The notes: a model not told the origin generated them from the sequence alone. 64,000 nucleotides of DNA from an uncultured Candidatus Saccharibacteria bacterium (GCA_964483665.1 CAZACP010000003.1:29692-93691); one strand, 5' to 3'. Positions 2,882 to 64,000 are shown, counted from the stretch's first letter. Program-made: numbers and translations.

Positions 2882-3529
2882 TTAGTCTCCCAAATTTGTT
2901 TTTAAATTCCTTATAGTTCCACCGGCTGTTAAAGTAAAAAAATTGTTATTTAAGACACCTGCTTTATTATATACTTTTAAATTTATTTTCAAATATTTAA
3001 CCGCAGTTACACTTACGGGCTGGGCAAGCGAAGTTTGGGTAGATGATCCCACATAGCTGTTATCATAATAATAAAACAGGGGCGTAGTACTGGAATTGGC
3101 AATGTCGTTTTGAACCAAGACTGAAACTTCGGTGCTTGTAGGGTAACTAGTCCCATTGTACTCAACAACCCCCTTGTACAATTTACCATTTTGTAAAAAA
3201 TACCTAATTCTTTCAATAGACGAATCCTTGTCGGCATTACTGTAATATGCCACTTGTTGGTCGCCAGCAATTTCTAGCGCATAGGCGCCATTGGCACCTG
3301 TTTGGGCATTTCTCAGCTCGTTAATAATTCCAAAAGCCACTTTACGCGCTTGGTCTGTATCTGCTAACAAATCTGACTGCTTGCGGCTACCCGTAACAAT
3401 TTGAGAAACCAAAGCAACTAAGCCTAACATAATTATCGCGAATGCAAAAATTGAAACCACGGTTTCAATTAGGGTAAACCCGTGACTGAAATTTGAAATT
3501 TGAAATTTGAAATTTGAAATTTTTCTCAT
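2882..3529 (-). CDS. Type IV pilin-like / pseudopilin with prepilin cleavage-methylation motif (GFTLIE)
   Basis: MRKISNFKFQISNFSHGFTLIETVVSIFAFAIIMLGLVALV: classic G/FTLIE N-methylation site followed by a hydrophobic helix. Confidence 0.8.
   Translation of the reverse strand: MRKISNFKFQISNFSHGFTLIETVVSIFAFAIIMLGLVALVSQIVTGSRKQSDLLADTDQARKVAFGIINELRNAQTGANGAYALEIAGDQQVAYYSNADKDSSIERIRYFLQNGKLYKGVVEYNGTSYPTSTEVSVLVQNDIANSSTTPLFYYYDNSYVGSSTQTSLAQPVSVTAVKYLKINLKVYNKAGVLNNNFFTLTAGGTIRNLKTNLGD
3487..3521. repeat. Heptanucleotide tandem repeat (TGAAATT)x5, i.e. AAATTTC x5 on the coding strand, in the leader peptide of the pilin gene (codons 3-14)
   Basis: Direct reading tgaaatttgaaatttgaaatttgaaatttgaaatt immediately 3' of the start codon at 3527-3529 (minus strand); it encodes ISNFKFQISNF. 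Confidence 0.9.
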
Positions 3530-5337
3530 GGGCTCATTAAAATTTCAAGGCTCTGGTTCCCATTAATATTCAAAGTATTAATTGTCTGGGTCTGGTACCC
3601 GGGGATACTAACCTCCAAAGAATGATTACCGGCATAAAGTTCACCAAACCAAACTTGCCCTGGGGTAAAACATCCGGAAATGTAATTAATATTTACCGAA
3701 GTGAATACCGGCGTAATATATGGGTCAGAACTAGACAAATACGCCTTGTATCTTACATAACGATTATTGTCTAGCGCCGAAGTAATATTGCTTCCAGGAA
3801 CTGTATAATAAGTAGACGAAGTTCCGTCAGGCCCCACATAATTCCAAGTTGCGTTATCATTATTAGCCGCAAGCTGAAAGCTTAAAGATGTTGAAGAGCT
3901 CTGGGAAGGAGGATCCCAAGTTAAAGTAGTAAAATTTGAAAGCCCTGTTCCTGTATCAAAAGTAGAACTTTCAAGCCACCCGCTTGAAACAAACAGCCCG
4001 ACGTCCTGCCTTAATCTGACACCAGTCGGAACTGAAGCAATATCAATATTTGCGTCGTCCTGAAAATACTTGTCGGGACTGGAAGTTGACCAATTCGCTT
4101 GTCCGCTTCCGCTACTCCAATCTATCTGCGTCCATACACTGCCTGAGGTATAACCGTAATAATCTTCAGAAGGAGGGCCAGTTTTCTGTAAATGAGCAAA
4201 AACATTTTCCAAAGCCGCTCCTGTCGCAGCATCTTTAACAACTAAAAGTAAACTATTGGAAGTAGAGTTTAAACCTAAAATTGTAGTAAACGTTTGAGTG
4301 GTATTTGGCATAACATCAATTTTCTGTATGGGCGAAGTACCAGCCACAACCCAAGACTGTCCGGTTAAAAGCGTCGGAGTATAAGAATCCCATTCCAAAC
4401 TATTTAACGCAATAAGCCCGCCCGATGAACTAAAATTTTCATTAAATTTTAAAACATCCGGGCTGGTTCCAATTAACTTAGCCCCACGAATATTAATATT
4501 AACACCATTCACATTTTGACACGATGTATTTAAAGTTTTAATATTAAGCGTCGAAATGAGATCGATGGAGAAACTTATCGTGGTAACTTGGCCGTCAATT
4601 ATGGTAGTGTCCGGCTTAATTGGGTTTGGATTTGAAACCGTTGGCAGATAGGTCATATCAGAAGAATAACCAGCCTTGGTAACAACAATATGGTAGCCGT
4701 TAACTTTTGCCGGAAGACCAACTTCAATCCATTGACCGGCTGAGTCGCTTGTTCGGTCTAAAATAATAGTCGGAGCCGTGGTCGTTGATTCTATATGAAT
4801 ACTGGCACCCGACACCGGCTGACCGCTTGAGTTAAAAACTTTTATTAAAAGAGCTCCCGCATTTAATGTTCCTTCCAAGCCCTTTGGTACAACATTAGTA
4901 GAAAAAGTTGAAACCTGGTTGGTAGTAGTATTTAAAATTGTCATTTTTACCTGCTTATAGTCTGCGGGTTCAGCGTCTGCCGGAGCCAGACCGTCGGCGG
5001 GGTCGTCTATGTATGTTACTTCGTAATAAATTTTGTAGGTATAACTTTCAATTCTTGTTGTAATAGCGTTTGTTAAGTCAACCAAAGGCCCGTTGGGGTT
5101 GCCCACAACAGTTCCCACTTGACTGTAGGGCATATTTTTTACAATTTCCATATAGTTATCCGCTAAAGAAGCCAGAATGGTTTTTTCCCTTGCTACCTTA
5201 ACTGTTTTGGTTAAAGCTGCGTACGAGCCAATAACCCCAAGCGCAATAATTGCAAAAATCGCCAAACTCATAAGAGCCTCGAGCAGAGTAAACCCGGAAC
5301 GATTAACAATTAACGATTTACATTTAACCTTTTGCAT
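3526..5337 (-). CDS. Large type IV pilin-like protein (prepilin motif GFTLLE, 603 aa)
   Basis: MQKVKCKSLIVNRSGFTLLEALMSLAIFAIIALGVIGSYAAL N-terminus; overlaps the next gene by 4 nt (operon). Confidence 0.75.
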   Translation of the reverse strand: MQKVKCKSLIVNRSGFTLLEALMSLAIFAIIALGVIGSYAALTKTVKVAREKTILASLADNYMEIVKNMPYSQVGTVVGNPNGPLVDLTNAITTRIESYTYKIYYEVTYIDDPADGLAPADAEPADYKQVKMTILNTTTNQVSTFSTNVVPKGLEGTLNAGALLIKVFNSSGQPVSGASIHIESTTTAPTIILDRTSDSAGQWIEVGLPAKVNGYHIVVTKAGYSSDMTYLPTVSNPNPIKPDTTIIDGQVTTISFSIDLISTLNIKTLNTSCQNVNGVNINIRGAKLIGTSPDVLKFNENFSSSGGLIALNSLEWDSYTPTLLTGQSWVVAGTSPIQKIDVMPNTTQTFTTILGLNSTSNSLLLVVKDAATGAALENVFAHLQKTGPPSEDYYGYTSGSVWTQIDWSSGSGQANWSTSSPDKYFQDDANIDIASVPTGVRLRQDVGLFVSSGWLESSTFDTGTGLSNFTTLTWDPPSQSSSTSLSFQLAANNDNATWNYVGPDGTSSTYYTVPGSNITSALDNNRYVRYKAYLSSSDPYITPVFTSVNINYISGCFTPGQVWFGELYAGNHSLEVSIPGYQTQTINTLNINGNQSLEILMSP

Positions 5338-10735: not shown

Positions 10736-11074
10736 TTATTTTAATTCTGCTTTAAGCCAATTATAAAAATTCTTTTCCACGTTTTCCATTTCCCACTGGC
10801 CAATGAAAGGTATTTTGTCTGAATGAAGTTCTTTAACTAATTTGAGGATTTTCAAATAATGTTTAGGCAAGGTTTCTAAAGTAAGCAAAGGCCCGTGCGA
10901 TGTTTGTAGTTTGTTTGACTTGGGCGGCCAAAAATAAACGCTTTTTATTCTGGGTATTATGCCATAGCAAGCGCAAAGGCGATTCTTGAGTACTGCGCGG
11001 CCGATTTTTTCCGCTTCCTTAGAACTATTCGTATTTACCACCACCCAAACAATCTCATTTATTGACATAAACAA
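10736..11074 (-). CDS. cutA: Divalent-cation tolerance protein CutA
   Basis: ...VVNTNSSKEAEKIGRAVLKNRLCACYGIIPRIKSVYFWPP...LLTLETLPKHYLKILKLVKELHSDKIPFIGQWEMENVEKNFYNWLKAEL matches the CutA1 fold consensus. Confidence 0.75.
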   Translation of the reverse strand: MFMSINEIVWVVVNTNSSKEAEKIGRAVLKNRLCACYGIIPRIKSVYFWPPKSNKLQTSHGPLLTLETLPKHYLKILKLVKELHSDKIPFIGQWEMENVEKNFYNWLKAELK

Positions 11075-11130
11075 AAAAAGTAATTGGGATGAAAAAATTC
11101 ATAAAAATTTTAAATTGCATTCAATATTTT

Positions 11131-11198
11131 TGTCATTTCCGTCGTTTTTTGCTTGCCCGCCATAGCCTTGCGCGAAGGCTGGGTCATTTTTGTTCAAT
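11131..11198. repeat. Copy 1 of a ~70-bp repeat encoding the tail peptide (L)NKNDPAFAQGYGGQAKNDGNDKN, out of frame (+1) with the 3' end of yjbQ
   Basis: About 75% identical to 11606-11673; on the minus strand a TTG-initiated small frame overlaps the yjbQ stop. Confidence 0.7.
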
Positions 11199-11588
11199 TA
11201 TTGTAACTACTATTTCTCTTTGTTTGGGACCGTCAAAATCAAAAAACAAAACTCTTTGCCAAGTACCTAAATCGAGAGTGCCTTTTACTACGGGCACAAG
11301 CGTCCCAGGACCTATGCCGGCCGAAAGCACGTGGTCAGGCATATGGGAAGGGTCGTGCGGATGACGGTAATTTAACTTGGGCACAATTTTTTCAAAAGCT
11401 TCCAAGTAGTCTAAGTCAGTGCCTCCGGAGTCCAAATCCGCAACGCTAATCGCAGTAGTTGTGTGCTTGGAAAAAATATGACAAAGACCGGTAGTCGCAC
11501 CCAAACTTTCCAAATGCTCATTTACTAACTCCGTAATGTCCAATACCTGTTTATGCTTTTGTGACTGAATTTTTAACAACTTGGACAT
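11184..11588 (-). CDS. yjbQ: YjbQ/UPF0047 family protein (secondary thiamine-phosphate synthase-like)
   Basis: HTTTAISVADLDSGGTDLDYLEAFEKIVP...HMPDHVLSAGIGPGTLVPVVKGTLDLGTWQRVLFFDFDGPKQREIVV matches the YjbQ consensus (HTTAA..NE, LGTWQ). Confidence 0.85.
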   Translation of the reverse strand: MSKLLKIQSQKHKQVLDITELVNEHLESLGATTGLCHIFSKHTTTAISVADLDSGGTDLDYLEAFEKIVPKLNYRHPHDPSHMPDHVLSAGIGPGTLVPVVKGTLDLGTWQRVLFFDFDGPKQREIVVTIIEQK

Positions 11589-11591
11589 ACA

Positions 11592-11918
11592 TTATTCGGG
11601 GTTATTTTTTTCATTTTCGTCGTTTTTGACTTGACCGCCGTAGCCTTTCTGAGAGACTAGGTCATTTTTGTTCATTTCTATTACTTCCACATTTCCTACC
11701 CTTGCTCCTTCCGGTCCTTGTTTGGCCCAATTTACAAATTTTTCTAAAGCTTCGTCTTCACCCGAAACTTCTATTTCCACTCCTTCTTTGGTATTTTCCG
11801 CCTTGCCGGTTAAACCTAAATCCACCATTTGCAAATGCGATTCAAACCTAAAACCAACCCCCCAAACTCTCGGTCCTGAAATTTTAACCAACAATGTTTT
11901 AGTCATTTTAATTTCCAA
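11592..11918 (-). CDS. acyP: Acylphosphatase with 27-aa C-terminal tail (MNKNDLVSQKGYGGQVKNDENEKNNPE) encoded by repeat copy 2
   Basis: VKISGPRVWGVGFRFESHLQMVDLGLTGKAENTKEGVEIEVSGEDEALEKFVNWAKQGPEGARVGNVEV is the acylphosphatase signature (V.G.VQGV.FR, G.V.N..DG.V); the tail begins with an internal ATG. Confidence 0.8.
   Translation of the reverse strand: MEIKMTKTLLVKISGPRVWGVGFRFESHLQMVDLGLTGKAENTKEGVEIEVSGEDEALEKFVNWAKQGPEGARVGNVEVIEMNKNDLVSQKGYGGQVKNDENEKNNPE
11606..11673. repeat. Copy 2 of the ~70-bp tail-peptide repeat (in frame with acyP)
   Basis: Aligned by eye to 11131-11198. Confidence 0.7.
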
Positions 11919-11978: not shown

Positions 11979-12428
11979 TCACATTTTTCCTATATCTTTC
12001 AAAACTTCTTCCGCGTGTCCTTTTGGTTCCACCTTCTCATATATTTTAGCAATTCTGCCTTCCTGGTCAATTAAAAATGAAGTTCTGGCATTCTTTCCCA
12101 TAAAACCTTCCCCGCTTACCCCGTAACTTTCTGAAACGCTTCCGTCTTCGTCGGAAAGTAAAGTAAAAGGCAAACCGTATTTTTGCGCAAATTGCTTATG
12201 ACTTTCCGTAGTGTCTGTACTTATGCCAAAAACTTCTGCGCCAATGTTCTGAAATTTAGGCAGATTGTCTCTTATTCCGCAGGCTTCCAAAGTACAGCCC
12301 GGAGTGTCGTCTTCTGGGTAAAAATACACTAAAACCCACTCGCCTAAAGAATCTTCCAGGCTATGAATACTATTATCCTGGTCAGGAAGGCTAAATAGCG
12401 GCGCCATTTGTCCTACTTGCAATTTCAT
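11979..12428 (-). CDS. bcp: Peroxiredoxin Bcp (thiol peroxidase, AhpC/TSA family)
   Basis: MKLQVGQMAPLFSLPDQ...VLVYFYPEDDTPGCTLEACGIRDN...; the FYPxDDTPGCT active site is diagnostic. The ORF track extends the start to 12527, but the internal Met with the conserved N-terminus is preferred. Confidence 0.85.
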   Translation of the reverse strand: MKLQVGQMAPLFSLPDQDNSIHSLEDSLGEWVLVYFYPEDDTPGCTLEACGIRDNLPKFQNIGAEVFGISTDTTESHKQFAQKYGLPFTLLSDEDGSVSESYGVSGEGFMGKNARTSFLIDQEGRIAKIYEKVEPKGHAEEVLKDIGKM

Positions 12429-12429
12429 A

Positions 12430-12618
12430 TTACATTTTTCTTCTAATTTTAAATTCCAAAGCCTGCTGGCTGCCTTTTTTGCTTTTGGTAATACTAATTT
12501 TTTCGCCCAAAGCCTCCATTTCCACACTGTCGCCTACCCTTAAACCCGCTTTGTCTAATAAGCTTTTAGACAAAGCCACTACCAAGCTATTGCCGGTTTT
12601 AAATATTTTCCTCTGCAT
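12430..12618 (-). CDS. AbrB/MazE/SpoVT-family DNA-binding protein (antitoxin-like), no cognate toxin adjacent
   Basis: MQRKIFKTGNSLVVALSKSLLDKAGLRVGDSVEMEALGEKISI: swapped-hairpin (AbrB) signature K.G.S..V.LPK...........GD.V. Confidence 0.6.
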   Translation of the reverse strand: MQRKIFKTGNSLVVALSKSLLDKAGLRVGDSVEMEALGEKISITKSKKGSQQALEFKIRRKM

Positions 12619-12723
12619 TACTACATTATAGACAAAAAATGCAAATTGACCAATTGACTAATTTTTGATAGATTTGTAAGCACAAAAGCCTTATAAAGGC
12701 TAAAAGAAAGAGGGACGCATGTT

Positions 12724-16201: not shown

Positions 16202-16215
16202 GCTATATTAGCCAC

Positions 16216-16322
16216 TGTCATTCCGGAAGCCCGGAGTGCATCCGACGGGCTATCCGGAATCCAGTCCATACTAAGCCGGGTTCTGGATCCCGGCTCTCGG
16301 CCGCGCTCGGCCGGGATGACAC
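16216..16322. repeat. GC-rich palindromic element, long form (two hairpins bounded by GTCATTCC...GGGATGAC terminal inverted repeats), MITE-like family copy 1
   Basis: tgtcattccggaagcccgg...tccggaatccag / ggatcccggctctcggccgcgctcggccgggatgacac; related copies at 49262, 53876 and 63918. Confidence 0.7.
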
Positions 16323-16446
16323 TTATAGACCAGATAAATCTGGCACTGTGAACTTGCTTTACAAAGATTATTTATAACCTAAAAAACCTCCTGCGAAAGC
16401 AAAGAGGTTTTTTAATATCCAATTTCGAATTTTTCAATATCTATAA

Positions 16447-41842: not shown

Positions 41843-41926
41843 TTGGTTTCGAACATTACCATTTTTCCACTCTGCCCAAAATTAAAATCACCAACAAACA
41901 TTGGTGATTTTAATTGGCTCGGGAGC
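41843..41926. repeat. Direct repeat copy B (includes the genuine tRNA 3' end)
   Basis: See copy A. Confidence 0.65.
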
Positions 41927-41955
41927 TGGGATTCGAACCCAGGACCCATCGGTTA

Positions 41956-42508
41956 CACTTTACCCTAATATTTCTATTAGGCGTGGACTATATCATTCCG
42001 CCAGAGGCGGACGAGGGGCTTCCCAATCCCACATAGTGGGATAAGTACTCTCTTTCGAGATAGTCTCTGAACCTTCAATGACTTTTCGTCAAAGCTTGGC
42101 TGCTGATTGCCATATCCTTATAAGGATTTAGGGTTCCAGCAATTCACCTCGTTTTTCACTTCCCAATTGCTTGAGAAGGCTGCAATAGACCGGCATGAAT
42201 TTCCTTATGACAGTTGGAACAAATAAGTACGCACTTATTTAGTTCTGCTAAAGTTTTTTGCCAGGACCTTGTTAGGCCATTGGCACCAAGTCCAAAACCT
42301 TTGGTTTTGGGGTCAAGATGATGAAACTCTAGGGCACCGGCGCAACGGTTATATCCACAAAATTGGCATTTGCCACCTTTGTGGGCTATTGCCATTTCTT
42401 TAATCTTTTTGCGCCGTTTGTCTACTGCCTTTTTAAGGTATTCTGCGCGGTCGGAATATTTCCTTTTATCAGGCATAAATTTATGTTTACTGATAAAGGG
42501 TAGTGTTC
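41956..42508 (-). mobile_element. Group I intron (conserved P, Q, R, S elements) with embedded HNH homing-endonuclease ORF
   Basis: In RNA sense: P GUGAAUUGCUGGAACCC, Q GGCAAUCAGCAGCC, R GGUUCAGAGACUAUC, S AUGAUAUAGUCCACG, P9 hairpin CCUAAUAGAAAUAUUAGG, terminal G. Confidence 0.75.
42156..42476 (-). CDS. HNH endonuclease (intron-encoded)
   Basis: CQFCGYNRCAGALEFHHLDPKTKGF...NGLTRSWQKTLAELNKCVLICSNCHKEIHAG: the HNH His-Me finger with two CxxC pairs. Confidence 0.85.
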   Translation of the reverse strand: MPDKRKYSDRAEYLKKAVDKRRKKIKEMAIAHKGGKCQFCGYNRCAGALEFHHLDPKTKGFGLGANGLTRSWQKTLAELNKCVLICSNCHKEIHAGLLQPSQAIGK

Positions 42509-42648
42509 ACAGCCGATTGCTCTACCGCTGAGCTACTCCCGAACGTTTGTTGAATATATTCAACTTACGATATTTTAACATCAAATTTAAATTTCATCAA
42601 CCCCAAACAAATTAGCTGGATGCTAGTATTTTTTGTTATAATCTAACT

Positions 42649-50392: not shown

Positions 50393-51463
50393 ATGGTCAA
50401 TTACATTATGCCCGCGGAGTGGGAACCGCACAAAGCCATATGGCTTGCCTGGCCTCACGATGAAATTTCCTTCCCCGGCCGGGTAGAAAAAGTCCAGGAC
50501 GACGTAGTAAAAATAATTTCTGCTATTCACCCCTATGAACAGGTGGAGCTTTTTGTTTTAGACCCCGAAATGAAGGAAAAGGCAGAAAATAAACTAGCTA
50601 AAGCTGGGGTAGATTTAAGCAAAGTAACTTTTCGCTTTGCCGAATATATGGACGCCTGGATGCGCGACTGCGGACCTATTTGGGTTCGCCCCTCTTTCCC
50701 TCTCCCCCTGGGAGAGGGTCAGGGTGAGGGTGCCAATTACACTTTAATAAAATGGATATTTAATATGTGGGGCGGAAAATTTATAGATCTTTTGCCCGAC
50801 GACAAACTGCCCTACAAAATTAAAGAGTGGCTGAATTTGCCCATGGAGCAGCCGGAAATGGTTTTAGAAGGCGGGGCAATAGATGTTAACGGCCAAGGAC
50901 TTTGTCTTACCACGGAGCAGTGTGTTTTAAATGAAAACCGCAATATGGGCAAAACCAAAAAAGATATTGAAGAATACTTTGAAAAGTACCTTGGGGTTAA
51001 AAAAACCATCTGGCTGTTTCAGGGACTTGTAAACGACCACACGGACGGGCATATAGACGAACTCGCCCGCTTTGTTAGCCCAAACAAAATAGTTTGTGCC
51101 TATGAAGACAACGAAACAGACGAAAATTATGTAACTTTAAAAAATAACTTTGAGACTTTGCAGGCCGCTACAAATTTAGAAGACAAGCCTTTTGAACTTA
51201 TAAAGCTACCTATGCCTCACAAAATATTTCCGGAAGGAGCGGCAGGTGTAGAAAAAAATGCCAAAGCACCAGTTTCTTACACAAACTTTTATATTGGCAA
51301 CAATGTAATTTTAATGTCTGTATTTAACGACCCTAACGACCAAAAAGCCATAGACATAATTCAGAGCTGTTTTCCAGACCGCAAAGTTGTTCCTATTGAT
51401 TGTAGCGACATTATATATGGCGGTGGTGGCATTCACTGTATGACCCAGCAACAGCCTGCATAG
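50393..51463 (+). CDS. aguA: Agmatine deiminase
   Basis: WLAWPH, WMRDCGPIWV, FNMWGG and C-terminal GGGIHCMTQQQP (catalytic Cys) match the agmatine deiminase family. Confidence 0.9.
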   Translation: MVNYIMPAEWEPHKAIWLAWPHDEISFPGRVEKVQDDVVKIISAIHPYEQVELFVLDPEMKEKAENKLAKAGVDLSKVTFRFAEYMDAWMRDCGPIWVRPSFPLPLGEGQGEGANYTLIKWIFNMWGGKFIDLLPDDKLPYKIKEWLNLPMEQPEMVLEGGAIDVNGQGLCLTTEQCVLNENRNMGKTKKDIEEYFEKYLGVKKTIWLFQGLVNDHTDGHIDELARFVSPNKIVCAYEDNETDENYVTLKNNFETLQAATNLEDKPFELIKLPMPHKIFPEGAAGVEKNAKAPVSYTNFYIGNNVILMSVFNDPNDQKAIDIIQSCFPDRKVVPIDCSDIIYGGGGIHCMTQQQPA

Positions 51464-53875: not shown

Positions 53876-53905
53876 GTCATCCCGGCCTTTAGAGCCGGGA
53901 TCCAG
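53876..53905. repeat. GC-rich palindromic element, short form (gtcatcccggcctttagagccgggatccag), family copy 3
   Basis: Read directly. Confidence 0.7.
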
Positions 53906-53937
53906 AAAAAAGAGCCTTAAATAAGGCTCTTTTTCTT
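53906..53937 (+). terminator. Intrinsic terminator, aaaaaagagccttaaataaggctctttttctttt
   Basis: Hairpin plus T-run. Confidence 0.8.
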
Positions 53938-57596: not shown

Positions 57597-57899
57597 ATGG
57601 TATGCAATGAAGGGGGCTGCACCGCCCCGGTAACGGTGCAAAATGGATTCGTTCCCGCCCTGGCCGAAATTTCGGCCTTGGCAGGCAAGCCGGTCACCCG
57701 GCTTACCGAGAACGAGGTTCTCGCAGTCGGATACTGCGAGGACTGTGCTGCCATCCATGGGATGTGCGGCGGCAAAAAGCTTTTCTCCGCCAGCCGCGCG
57801 CTGGCGGAAATAGAAAAACAACAAAAGGCGGCTAACCACGCCGCCGCCCGGCAAACGCTGGGCGCGGCATTTGTGGCCGCAGGCTTCCAAGCCAAGTAG
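57597..57899 (+). CDS. Small Cys-rich hypothetical protein (first gene of the GC-rich island)
   Basis: MVCNEGGCTAPV...GYCEDCAAIHGMCGG; Shine-Dalgarno GGGAGAGG; GC-rich. Confidence 0.5.
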   Translation: MVCNEGGCTAPVTVQNGFVPALAEISALAGKPVTRLTENEVLAVGYCEDCAAIHGMCGGKKLFSASRALAEIEKQQKAANHAAARQTLGAAFVAAGFQAK

Positions 57900-58108
57900 C
57901 CTTGGAAGCCAAACGCACGCGAGGGAGTTAGAGAGCAGCACACTCTTCTAACTCCCCTTTCTCCAGCTCGTGATTGTAAAATCATTGGCTGAAGATTGTA
58001 ACCGAACTAGCGGTCATACTAGGAAGCTGGTCTGTCTCGCCCAGTATAAAAAAGGCAACCTGCCATACCACAGACAGTGGTGCAGGAAACTCCTAGGAGG
58101 GGTTATGA
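57882..58108. repeat. 227-bp perfect direct repeat, copy 1 (hairpin-hairpin-conserved element-Shine-Dalgarno-ATGA)
   Basis: Identical by eye to 58528-58754. Confidence 0.85.
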
Positions 58109-58512: not shown

Positions 58513-58527
58513 CAATGTCCTGCCGCT

Positions 58528-58754
58528 GGCTTCCAAGCCAAGTAGCCTTGGAAGCCAAACGCACGCGAGGGAGTTAGAGAGCAGCACACTCTTCTAACTC
58601 CCCTTTCTCCAGCTCGTGATTGTAAAATCATTGGCTGAAGATTGTAACCGAACTAGCGGTCATACTAGGAAGCTGGTCTGTCTCGCCCAGTATAAAAAAG
58701 GCAACCTGCCATACCACAGACAGTGGTGCAGGAAACTCCTAGGAGGGGTTATGA
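58528..58754. repeat. 227-bp perfect direct repeat, copy 2
   Basis: See copy 1. Confidence 0.85.
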
Positions 58755-59863: not shown

Positions 59864-60093
59864 ATTTACCTTCGTTTTTAGTAACAAAACGAGGGCGTCT
59901 GTCCGAGCGTCATCCGGACAAAAACTTTGTCATTAGCCTAGCAACACACACGCTAGCTAATGACCTTTCTCCAGCTCGTGATTGCAAAATCATTAGCTGA
60001 AGATTGTAAAAATAGTTCTTTAAAAACTCTTCTCCTTTTTGGGATTCTTGCCATAAATTTTATGGCAAGTGTCCCCAACAGGAGTGGGGTGAA

Positions 60094-63700: not shown

Positions 63701-63917
63701 GTATAAAAAATAGCAGCACCCTCCCCTAACCCCTCCCCTCAAGGGAGGGGAACAATCTGTTAAACTTTATACTTCCCCACCCTCGTTCTCTTTAAACTAA
63801 ACACCACTCCACCTGTTTTTAATTTCTTACCAAGGTCGTGGGCTATGCTGCGGATGTAGGTACCCGAACCTACAGAAATTTTAAATTTTATAATTTTAAA
63901 TTTTAAATTACTGTTTT

Positions 63918-63990
63918 TGTCATTCCCGCGAAAGCGGGAATCCAGCTTTTTATTTATTCTGGATCCCGGCTCGGAGGCCGGGATGACACG
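63918..63990. repeat. GC-rich palindromic element, long form, family copy 4
   Basis: tgtcattcccgcgaaagcgggaatccag ... ggatcccggctcggaggccgggatgacacg. Confidence 0.7.
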
Positions 63991-64000
63991 CGCTGATGGG

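Follow-up and report, generated by a model that had tools for sequence, protein, structure and literature searches.

Diverged copies of an acylphosphatase tail flank yjbQ in a Candidatus Saccharibacteria genome and may be a recombination scar

We analysed a 64,000-nucleotide stretch of DNA from an uncultured Candidatus Saccharibacteria bacterium (GCA_964483665.1, CAZACP010000003.1:29692-93691), hereafter the window, and in it a ~70-bp repeat whose two copies flank the gene yjbQ. All features of this locus lie on the minus strand. Reading in the direction of the genes, an AhpC/Prx gene (11979–12527) precedes acyP (11592–11918; Pfam Acylphosphatase, E 3e-15), which probably starts at the ATG at 11906 and whose stop codon falls 3 nt ahead of the yjbQ ATG. 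The gene between the two repeat copies, yjbQ (UPF0047; 11184–11588, E 5e-30), is followed by cutA (10736–11068, alternatively to 11074; CutA1, E 1e-19), whose first ~135 nt lie inside a mosaic tract described below. Past cutA come a 120-aa open reading frame (ORF) and a Memo-like gene. The order AhpC–acyP–(yjbQ)–cutA–ORF–Memo is syntenic across relatives, compared here as numbered loci (L001 onwards) from metagenome-assembled genomes (MAGs) of Patescibacteria/candidate phyla radiation (CPR) bacteria, as judged by record titles.

The repeat described in the initial annotation is real, a repeat search placing its copies at 11125–11199 (copy A) and 11603–11677 (copy B), 75 nt with 81% ungapped identity. 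Within the window the copies match each other at E 4.8e-16 (blastn; next best window match, E 0.018), and neither the repeat search nor an nhmmer profile found a third copy of the 75-nt element in the 64 kb. Copy B occupies the native spot at the 3′ end of acyP, where it is read in frame as most of a 27-aa AcyP tail (codons 11595–11675, stop 11592–11594). Copy A is an ectopic copy of this tail behind yjbQ. It lies mostly 3′ of yjbQ, as first described, but overlaps the last three codons of that gene (EQK-stop), with the yjbQ TGA (11184–11186) inside the copy (AAAAATGACC); the rest is non-coding except for a mechanical 32-aa ORF with a TTG start (11099–11197). The peptides had been read correctly: AcyP ends ...VEVIE-MNKNDLVSQKGYGGQVKNDENEKNNPE-stop (tail peptide LVSQKGYGGQVK) and the TTG ORF encodes (L/M)NKNDPAFAQGYGGQAKNDGNDKNIECNLKFL. 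An independent JGI assembly contig (L005), with 97–98% nucleotide identity to the window, holds both copies unchanged, so the pair is not an assembly artefact.

Among 29 related loci, the nhmmer profile found further copies of the element in L005 and L006 only. Because there are no more copies in the window or in these loci, the element is not a dispersed repeat, at least over the range covered by the test (the 64-kb window and the related loci). An exact pattern for its right half gave 0 matches in metagenome and GTDB contig collections, which is weak evidence, given that even the sibling contig L005 is evidently absent from them.

In L006 the element stands directly after acyP, and copy B is ~83% identical to it (acyP itself, 85%). 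Because of this position, and because the AcyP tail of L001 is collinear with copy B, we regard the element as natively belonging to acyP, and copy B and the L006 element as orthologous acyP 3′ ends. Copy A is identical to the L006 element at 55/60 positions and to copy B at 50/60, and at 10 diagnostic sites the L006 element is A-like at seven and B-like at two. The 19% divergence between copies A and B is far above the ~4% background between the window and L013, although L013 is without copy A.

The element itself seems to be composite, consisting of an A-rich, low-complexity acyP 3′ tail and an inserted short, GC-rich hairpin module. The L001 tail (...EVNKNEGNEK-stop) has the native A-rich form, NKN(D/E)...NEK; it aligns collinearly and in frame with copy B when 42 nt of the latter are left out, and its stop overlaps the cutA start. 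This collinearity identifies the A-rich flanks as native acyP tail and the GC-rich core as an indel difference. The 42 nt fall between the near-repeats AAAAATGAC and AAAAACGAC, equivalent to a 36-nt insert flanked by CAAAAA. In both copies the core lies between direct repeats (CAAAAA / AAAAA(T/C)GAC), within flanks that are A-rich and of low complexity, and L001 resembles an empty site. In copy A the module (11152–11186, TGACCCAG-CCTTCGCGCAAGGCTATGGCGGGCAAG) matches the pattern of a wider hairpin family (E 4e-7 with the family hidden Markov model (HMM), a value that is not independent, the pattern having been designed from copy A); its upstream ACCCAG and C-G closing pair are common to a ‘CAG’ sub-family (for example, L058, L057 and L032). 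The module of copy B (11630–11664, TGACCTAGTCTCTCAGAAAGGCTACGGCGGTCAAG) is decayed, its 3′ half intact and its 5′ half diverged (HMM E 0.0034); it matches the family pattern over the 3′ 18 nt only, outside the stem register, and its predicted hairpin (UGACCUAGUCU...AGGCUA..GGUCA) is not significant (z = -1.2). No hairpin module occurs elsewhere in the window beyond the two element copies. RNA folds of both copies, on both strands, are no better than shuffles (z +0.3 to -1.2), and Rfam returned nothing relevant for the whole window (gathering threshold) or for the region (E ≤ 10).

Two protein-level readings had been proposed for the repeat, a small independently translated gene and a conserved C-terminal degron or localization tag; neither survives comparison. 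Across copies and orthologues the element sits in differing frames or is untranslated. Copy A is out of frame with yjbQ, and no ribosome-binding site is evident for its ORF; the L006 element is untranslated and one base off register from the acyP frame of the window, the L006 AcyP (80% identical) ending ...VEVTLVEQK at a TGA inside the element. AcyP orthologues at 53–87% identity have no tail or unrelated short tails; the AcyP tail recurs only in the 97%-identical sibling (P0001). The apparent conservation of the peptide is solely between the two copies in the window. As would be expected of a translated module, whether a small protein of the NKND...GYGGQ...KND form or a C-terminal degron or tag, both copies are open in the same frame for 25–27 codons, starting with ATG or TTG. 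Yet 12 of their codons in the NKND frame are different (10 nonsynonymous and 2 synonymous differences), a small sample that gives no sign of purifying selection on the peptide, and the 32-aa ORF, searched exhaustively with phmmer against 1.84e9 protein representatives, had 0 matches at E ≤ 0.001. The translated-module reading is already largely refuted and we consider it very improbable; no new gene or signal should be annotated at this repeat. The GYGGQ motif, tried as a peptide signature, is merely one frame of the GGCTAYGGCGGNCAAG hairpin module, which elsewhere turns up in every context and frame. Low-complexity tails and hairpin insertions together yield lineage-specific C-terminal extensions, which can mimic ‘conserved peptides’ when a single genome is read.

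The initial annotation had also suggested that yjbQ might have been inserted into an ancestral acyP–tail–cutA arrangement, the repeats being its footprints. This is contradicted by the presence of yjbQ in near and distant relatives. The acyP–yjbQ–cutA order is found in L011 (AcyP 70%, YjbQ 69%, CutA 77% identity), L015, L009/L010/L021 and L027; L012 and L013 contain its yjbQ–cutA part, their contigs ending before acyP. As yjbQ lies between acyP and cutA in these relatives, with identities concordant with those of its neighbours, it is a resident gene. Part of the footprint idea stands: yjbQ-less acyP–cutA loci do exist (L001/L023, L006, L014, L017, L018, L019, L020, L022 and L028), and copy A resembles an acyP 3′ end lying before cutA. 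It is the polarity that is reversed, in that the part that arrived or was duplicated would be the acyP-tail/spacer/cutA-5′ segment and not yjbQ; the repeat is no target duplication made by insertion of yjbQ. Both orders are common among related Patescibacteria. The element is absent from either junction of the compact yjbQ-containing relatives L011, L012 and L015, and copy A is absent behind yjbQ in the closest relative, L013.

Copy A belongs to a mosaic tract of ~270 nt (10934–11207), which runs from the final codons of yjbQ through copy A and a 57-nt spacer and takes in the opening ~135 nt of cutA. L013 is the closest relative after L005 (CutA 92%; flanks ~96–97% nucleotide identity), and its yjbQ 3′ end matches that of the window at 76/78 nt up to ...GAAATAGTA, beyond which the two diverge; L013 yjbQ ends ...ITLIGN-stop, and a 37-nt spacer and then cutA follow. 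Differences between the window and L013 amount to 2/78 in the yjbQ 3′ part, 28/135 in cutA nt 1–135, 6/198 in cutA nt 136–333 and 18/368 in the downstream gene. The 21% seen in cutA nt 1–135, many of the differences being synonymous, compares with 4% outside (26/644; Fisher p 1.5e-9), and identity is back to 97–100% after cutA nt ~135. Inside the tract, three features of the window recur in L006/L016, namely the element, the spacer that separates copy A from the start of cutA (11069–11124; ~80% identical to theirs and not alignable to the 37-nt spacer of L013) and a CutA N terminus of the form MS(I/K)NEI, where L013 and most relatives have M.(D/E)REI. Neighbour-joining trees of the two cutA partitions are incongruent, grouping the window with L013 in the 3′ part (100%) and with L006/L016 in the 5′ part (57.5%). 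The tract is thus bounded by a sharp change in identity and has a different nearest relative inside. Both MS.NE-type cutA loci with known upstream context (L006 and L017) are without yjbQ.

The explanation we favour, at roughly an even chance, is that copy A entered by recombination with a yjbQ-less allele, duplicating the acyP tail. In the resident chromosome, the reading frame would run through the native tail at copy B, giving AcyP its 27-aa appendix and leaving the acyP stop 3 nt from the yjbQ start; this spacing may have caused the extended frame to be tolerated or favoured, through translational coupling. Some related genomes would have lost yjbQ, bringing acyP, element, spacer and cutA together as in L006, and DNA from such an allele would have recombined into a resident acyP–element–yjbQ–cutA chromosome. 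The right crossover would be homologous, ~110–135 nt into cutA. The left join would lie at microhomology at the yjbQ end (GT[A/T]AC..TA[A/G]TTG; candidates are GTTACAATAATTG in the window, GTAACGTTAGTTG in L006 acyP and ATAACTCTAATTG in L013 yjbQ), and because it would fall there rather than in acyP, yjbQ would be kept, with a new C terminus and stop (EQK-stop) and two diverged acyP-tail copies on either side. The process would be one of homology-facilitated illegitimate recombination. A single such event could account at once for the mosaic, for the duplicated tail and for the affinity to L006/L016, and it is on this parsimony that we tentatively cast the window as the recipient. Patescibacteria have been reported to be naturally competent and to retain homologous-recombination genes (PMC12455944). 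We found no evidence of a dedicated function for the repeat, which presumably has none; the scar is most likely an ordinary by-product of genome shuffling.

Several observations weigh against import into the window. L013 could itself be a recombinant that received a compact yjbQ–cutA junction, element–yjbQ–element being the older state, and its contig ends short of the acyP side, where copy B would be. The donor is not among the sampled loci: cutA nt 46–90 is just 64% identical to L006, and three substitutions at the left junction are shared with neither L006 nor L013. The affinity of copy A to L006 comes to seven sites versus two, and that of the 5′ tree to 57.5% bootstrap. Identity between the window and L006 is roughly uniform across acyP, the spacer and both cutA parts (76–85%) and so cannot polarize the event; it also fits vertical descent of element–yjbQ–element, with L006 as a deletion derivative. 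This is the main rival, an old duplication, which we judge possible but rather unlikely. The ancestor of the window and L006 would have had acyP–element–yjbQ–element–spacer–cutA, produced by a duplication of unspecified mechanism; L006 would have lost yjbQ through recombination between the direct repeats, and L013 would have lost copy A and the spacer by importing a compact junction. L006 is exactly the expected deletion product (acyP left flank, one element, copy-A-type spacer, cutA), its identity to the window is alike in acyP (85%), spacer (80%) and the two cutA parts (76–78%), its element mixes seven A-like with two B-like sites, and yjbQ loss is frequent in the group. However, the origin of the duplication stays unexplained and a recombination import, into L013, is still needed; L011, L012 and L015 (~70% identity) have compact junctions without any element; and the two B-like sites of L006 are neighbouring transitions that lie between A-like ones, no simple crossover pattern.

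The core of copy A is also a member of a hairpin family that extends across metagenomes. It resembles two sequences in a related MAG, L015 (976–1011 and 6467–6503), a locus that had given weak matches to the nhmmer profile of the element; one of the two is a solitary 34-nt insert with a 10-nt direct repeat, AAGTTGAAAG, on either side. A pattern designed from copy A and L015, CCTTCGCNNAAG(N0-1)CTNNGGCGGNCARG, also given as CCTTCGCNNAAG(G)CTNNGGCGGNCARG, occurs on at least 120 metagenome contigs with 33–72% GC, where roughly one would be expected by chance (~1); the loci of family copies are numbered L030–L149. Among the matches listed, copies are ~30–40 nt long with a NCCGCC/GGCGGN′ stem and an almost invariant 14–15-nt loop, TTCGCT(A/G)AAGCT(A/T)C, whose dinucleotides are nearly fixed without being imposed by the pattern. 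An upstream CCG that completes a 6-bp stem, likewise independent of the pattern, is present in 78/121, and the closing pair (-4, N′) is T-A in 57, C-G in 47 and A-T in 3 (109/121 pairable versus 80 expected). Flanking direct repeats are enriched in the same set (longest shared word 5.39 versus 4.64, reached by 0/200 re-pairings); some copies are embedded in short tandem repeats and some adjoin tRNA genes (L060, L077 and L106). Others are modules of larger elements ending GTCATTGCGAG...CTCGCAATGAC (L052, L096 and L015 6340–6530), and composite elements with GTCATTGCGAG ends are GIY-YIG-associated. No Rfam family corresponds to the hairpin, 20 hairpin-bearing loci, and one at E ≤ 10, giving only tRNAs or noise; a literature search for the hairpin sequence or its translated motifs found nothing relevant, and its consensus has no blastn match in 7.3 Gb of plasmids. 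We tentatively raise the possibility, itself unlikely, that this apparently undescribed cross-phylum family is a mobile or protein-recognized DNA/RNA element that inserts in frame, the repeat flanking yjbQ being its footprint. The family is the most intriguing by-product of the analysis and may merit separate study.

Membership of this family lends some appeal to two independent insertions of a small mobile element (akin to miniature inverted-repeat transposable elements or repetitive extragenic palindromic (REP) sequences) at the 3′ ends of acyP and yjbQ. Family copies listed often have short flanking direct repeats, the solitary L015 copy has its 10-nt repeat on both sides, and the core in both window copies lies between CAAAAA / AAAAAYGAC repeats. 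We consider this improbable nonetheless, as copies A and B also share ~40 nt of A-rich flank outside the core, which in L001 is native acyP tail; the element or its core is nowhere else in the 64-kb window or the related loci, and the spacer and cutA 5′ end next to copy A have diverged along with it. There is a similarly slim chance that the repeat is a functional cis element (a promoter or 5′ leader, an RNA hairpin or a terminator) acting upstream of yjbQ and cutA. Each copy does precede a gene; a 10/12 sigma-70-like site (ATGACA-18-TAAAAT, 11136–11107) is formed where copy A ends and the spacer begins, the copy A hairpin plus a T-run is terminator-like on the antisense strand, and the family has its conserved loop and covarying closing pair. 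Against this, fold energies are no better than shuffles and Rfam has no match at E 10; an 11-nt deletion takes the 3′ arm off the inner hairpin in L006; L013, L011, L012 and L015 have the same gene order and no element; and copy B is located within coding sequence, abutting the yjbQ start.

Other candidates at the repeat were discarded. For an intrinsic terminator, the hairpin would need a U-tract behind it on the gene strand, where there is none; copy A is the sole copy to score, and it does so on the antisense strand alone. A 37-nt similarity of the copy A/spacer region to 63892–63928 (TTTTTGTCATT(T/C)CCG after an AT-rich stretch) is not significant (E 0.018), which, with no gene downstream, also removes the notion of a decayed GTCATT-type composite or outward promoter built on that match.

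The genes compared here offer further observations. Clade AcyP proteins (81–108 aa; that of the window and P0001–P0008) terminate directly after VEVxE, the Pfam model match ending at position 77/85 and the last strand (F-x-I) seemingly missing; the L015 AcyP (3225–3500) has the canonical end, ...GFEGFTIERY. In L009, a more distant relative, YjbQ contains an in-frame GC-rich insertion, MDSGSPDRDPGQAWAGATAG (4360–4440), the yjbQ stop codon lies inside a GTCATTGCGAG-type repeat, and a GIY-YIG ORF bracketed by such repeats (4720–5260) stands between yjbQ and cutA. The acyP of L001 (6001–6596) has 87–88% protein identity to that of the window and the adjoining cutA just 72%, lower than the CutA of the more distant L011 (76–77%); this discordance of neighbouring genes suggests another recombination junction, at the acyP/cutA boundary. 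L005 also contains a ~310-nt insertion (2630–2940) with no counterpart in the window (~12619–12625), directly upstream of a 62-aa MazE/AbrB-like gene. The insertion encodes a 92-aa GIY-YIG protein and has 21-nt inverted repeats at its ends (CCCAGTAATACAACTTCCAAT / ATTGGAAGTTGATATACTGGG); the two sequences represent a filled/empty-site polymorphism of a mini GIY-YIG element.

Elsewhere in the window, which is 41% GC, GC-rich palindromic islands occur at 16210–16332, 53876–53906, 63919–64000, 50690–50738 and 63709–63760; one type reads GTCATTCC(C/G)G...GGAATCCAG / CTGGATCCCGGC...GGGATGACA and another CCCTCTCCC...GGGAGAGGG, and they look like further examples of the small repeat families that typify CPR genomes. 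A group I intron (Rfam RF00028, 64.9 bits; 41964–42208, minus strand) is flanked by tRNA-like half sequences (42512–42542 and 41914–41953, minus strand). As ARAGORN predicts no tRNA in any part of the 64 kb, 41914–42542 probably represents an intron-split tRNA gene. A perfect 233-nt direct repeat (57876–58108 / 58522–58754, 646-nt spacing) has related 69-nt repeats at 59957 and 63113, identified by the repeat search.

Returning to import from a yjbQ-less allele, the locus offers a clean, small example of reshuffling in the streamlined genomes of Patescibacteria: the same neighbourhood exists with and without yjbQ in many lineages, and the ~270-nt tract points to recombination between such alleles. 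Possible side-effects are deletion of yjbQ through the direct repeat, spaced by 478 bp, and a new spacer or promoter before cutA.

Comparison with known systems places the locus near several of them. Like an integron cassette, it has a single small gene bracketed by a pair of similar sequences of ~70 nt, of which the downstream one begins at the stop codon. Unlike one, it has no terminal inverted repeats or R″/R′ core sites (RYYYAAC...GTTRRRY), and the repeat flanks are acyP coding sequence; the attC/integron assignment was rejected, the ends being direct (ATTGAAC / ATTGAAT) rather than inverted and the folds unremarkable on both strands (z +0.3 to -1.2). The flanking genes are in conserved synteny across relatives, which speaks against an array of cassettes. 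The hairpin module recalls Rickettsia palindromic elements (RPEs), REP sequences and bacterial interspersed mosaic elements in being a short GC-rich palindrome in frame within a gene (adding 14 residues to AcyP), with short direct repeats alongside and a family of many copies in other genomes. It is ~35 nt long, unlike the 100–150 nt of RPEs, with only two linked copies in the 64-kb window, and its family, among the matches listed, spans contigs of 33–72% GC rather than one genus, with no transposase (such as the REP-associated RAYT type) identified. As in gene deletion mediated by direct repeats, 75-nt repeats 478 bp apart bracket one gene, and L006 is either the exact single-repeat, gene-less product or of the donor type; 81% identity is, unlike in the usual case, a poor substrate for recombination. 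Homology-facilitated illegitimate recombination and mosaic alleles arising from natural transformation have been described for Acinetobacter baylyi and Streptococcus pneumoniae. Our case is deduced from comparative sequence only, and its ~270-nt tract is at the short end of the usual range. It resembles those events in having one end in homology (cutA) and the other at microhomology (the yjbQ end), and in its short mosaic, where identity breaks sharply and the illegitimate end carries extra DNA.

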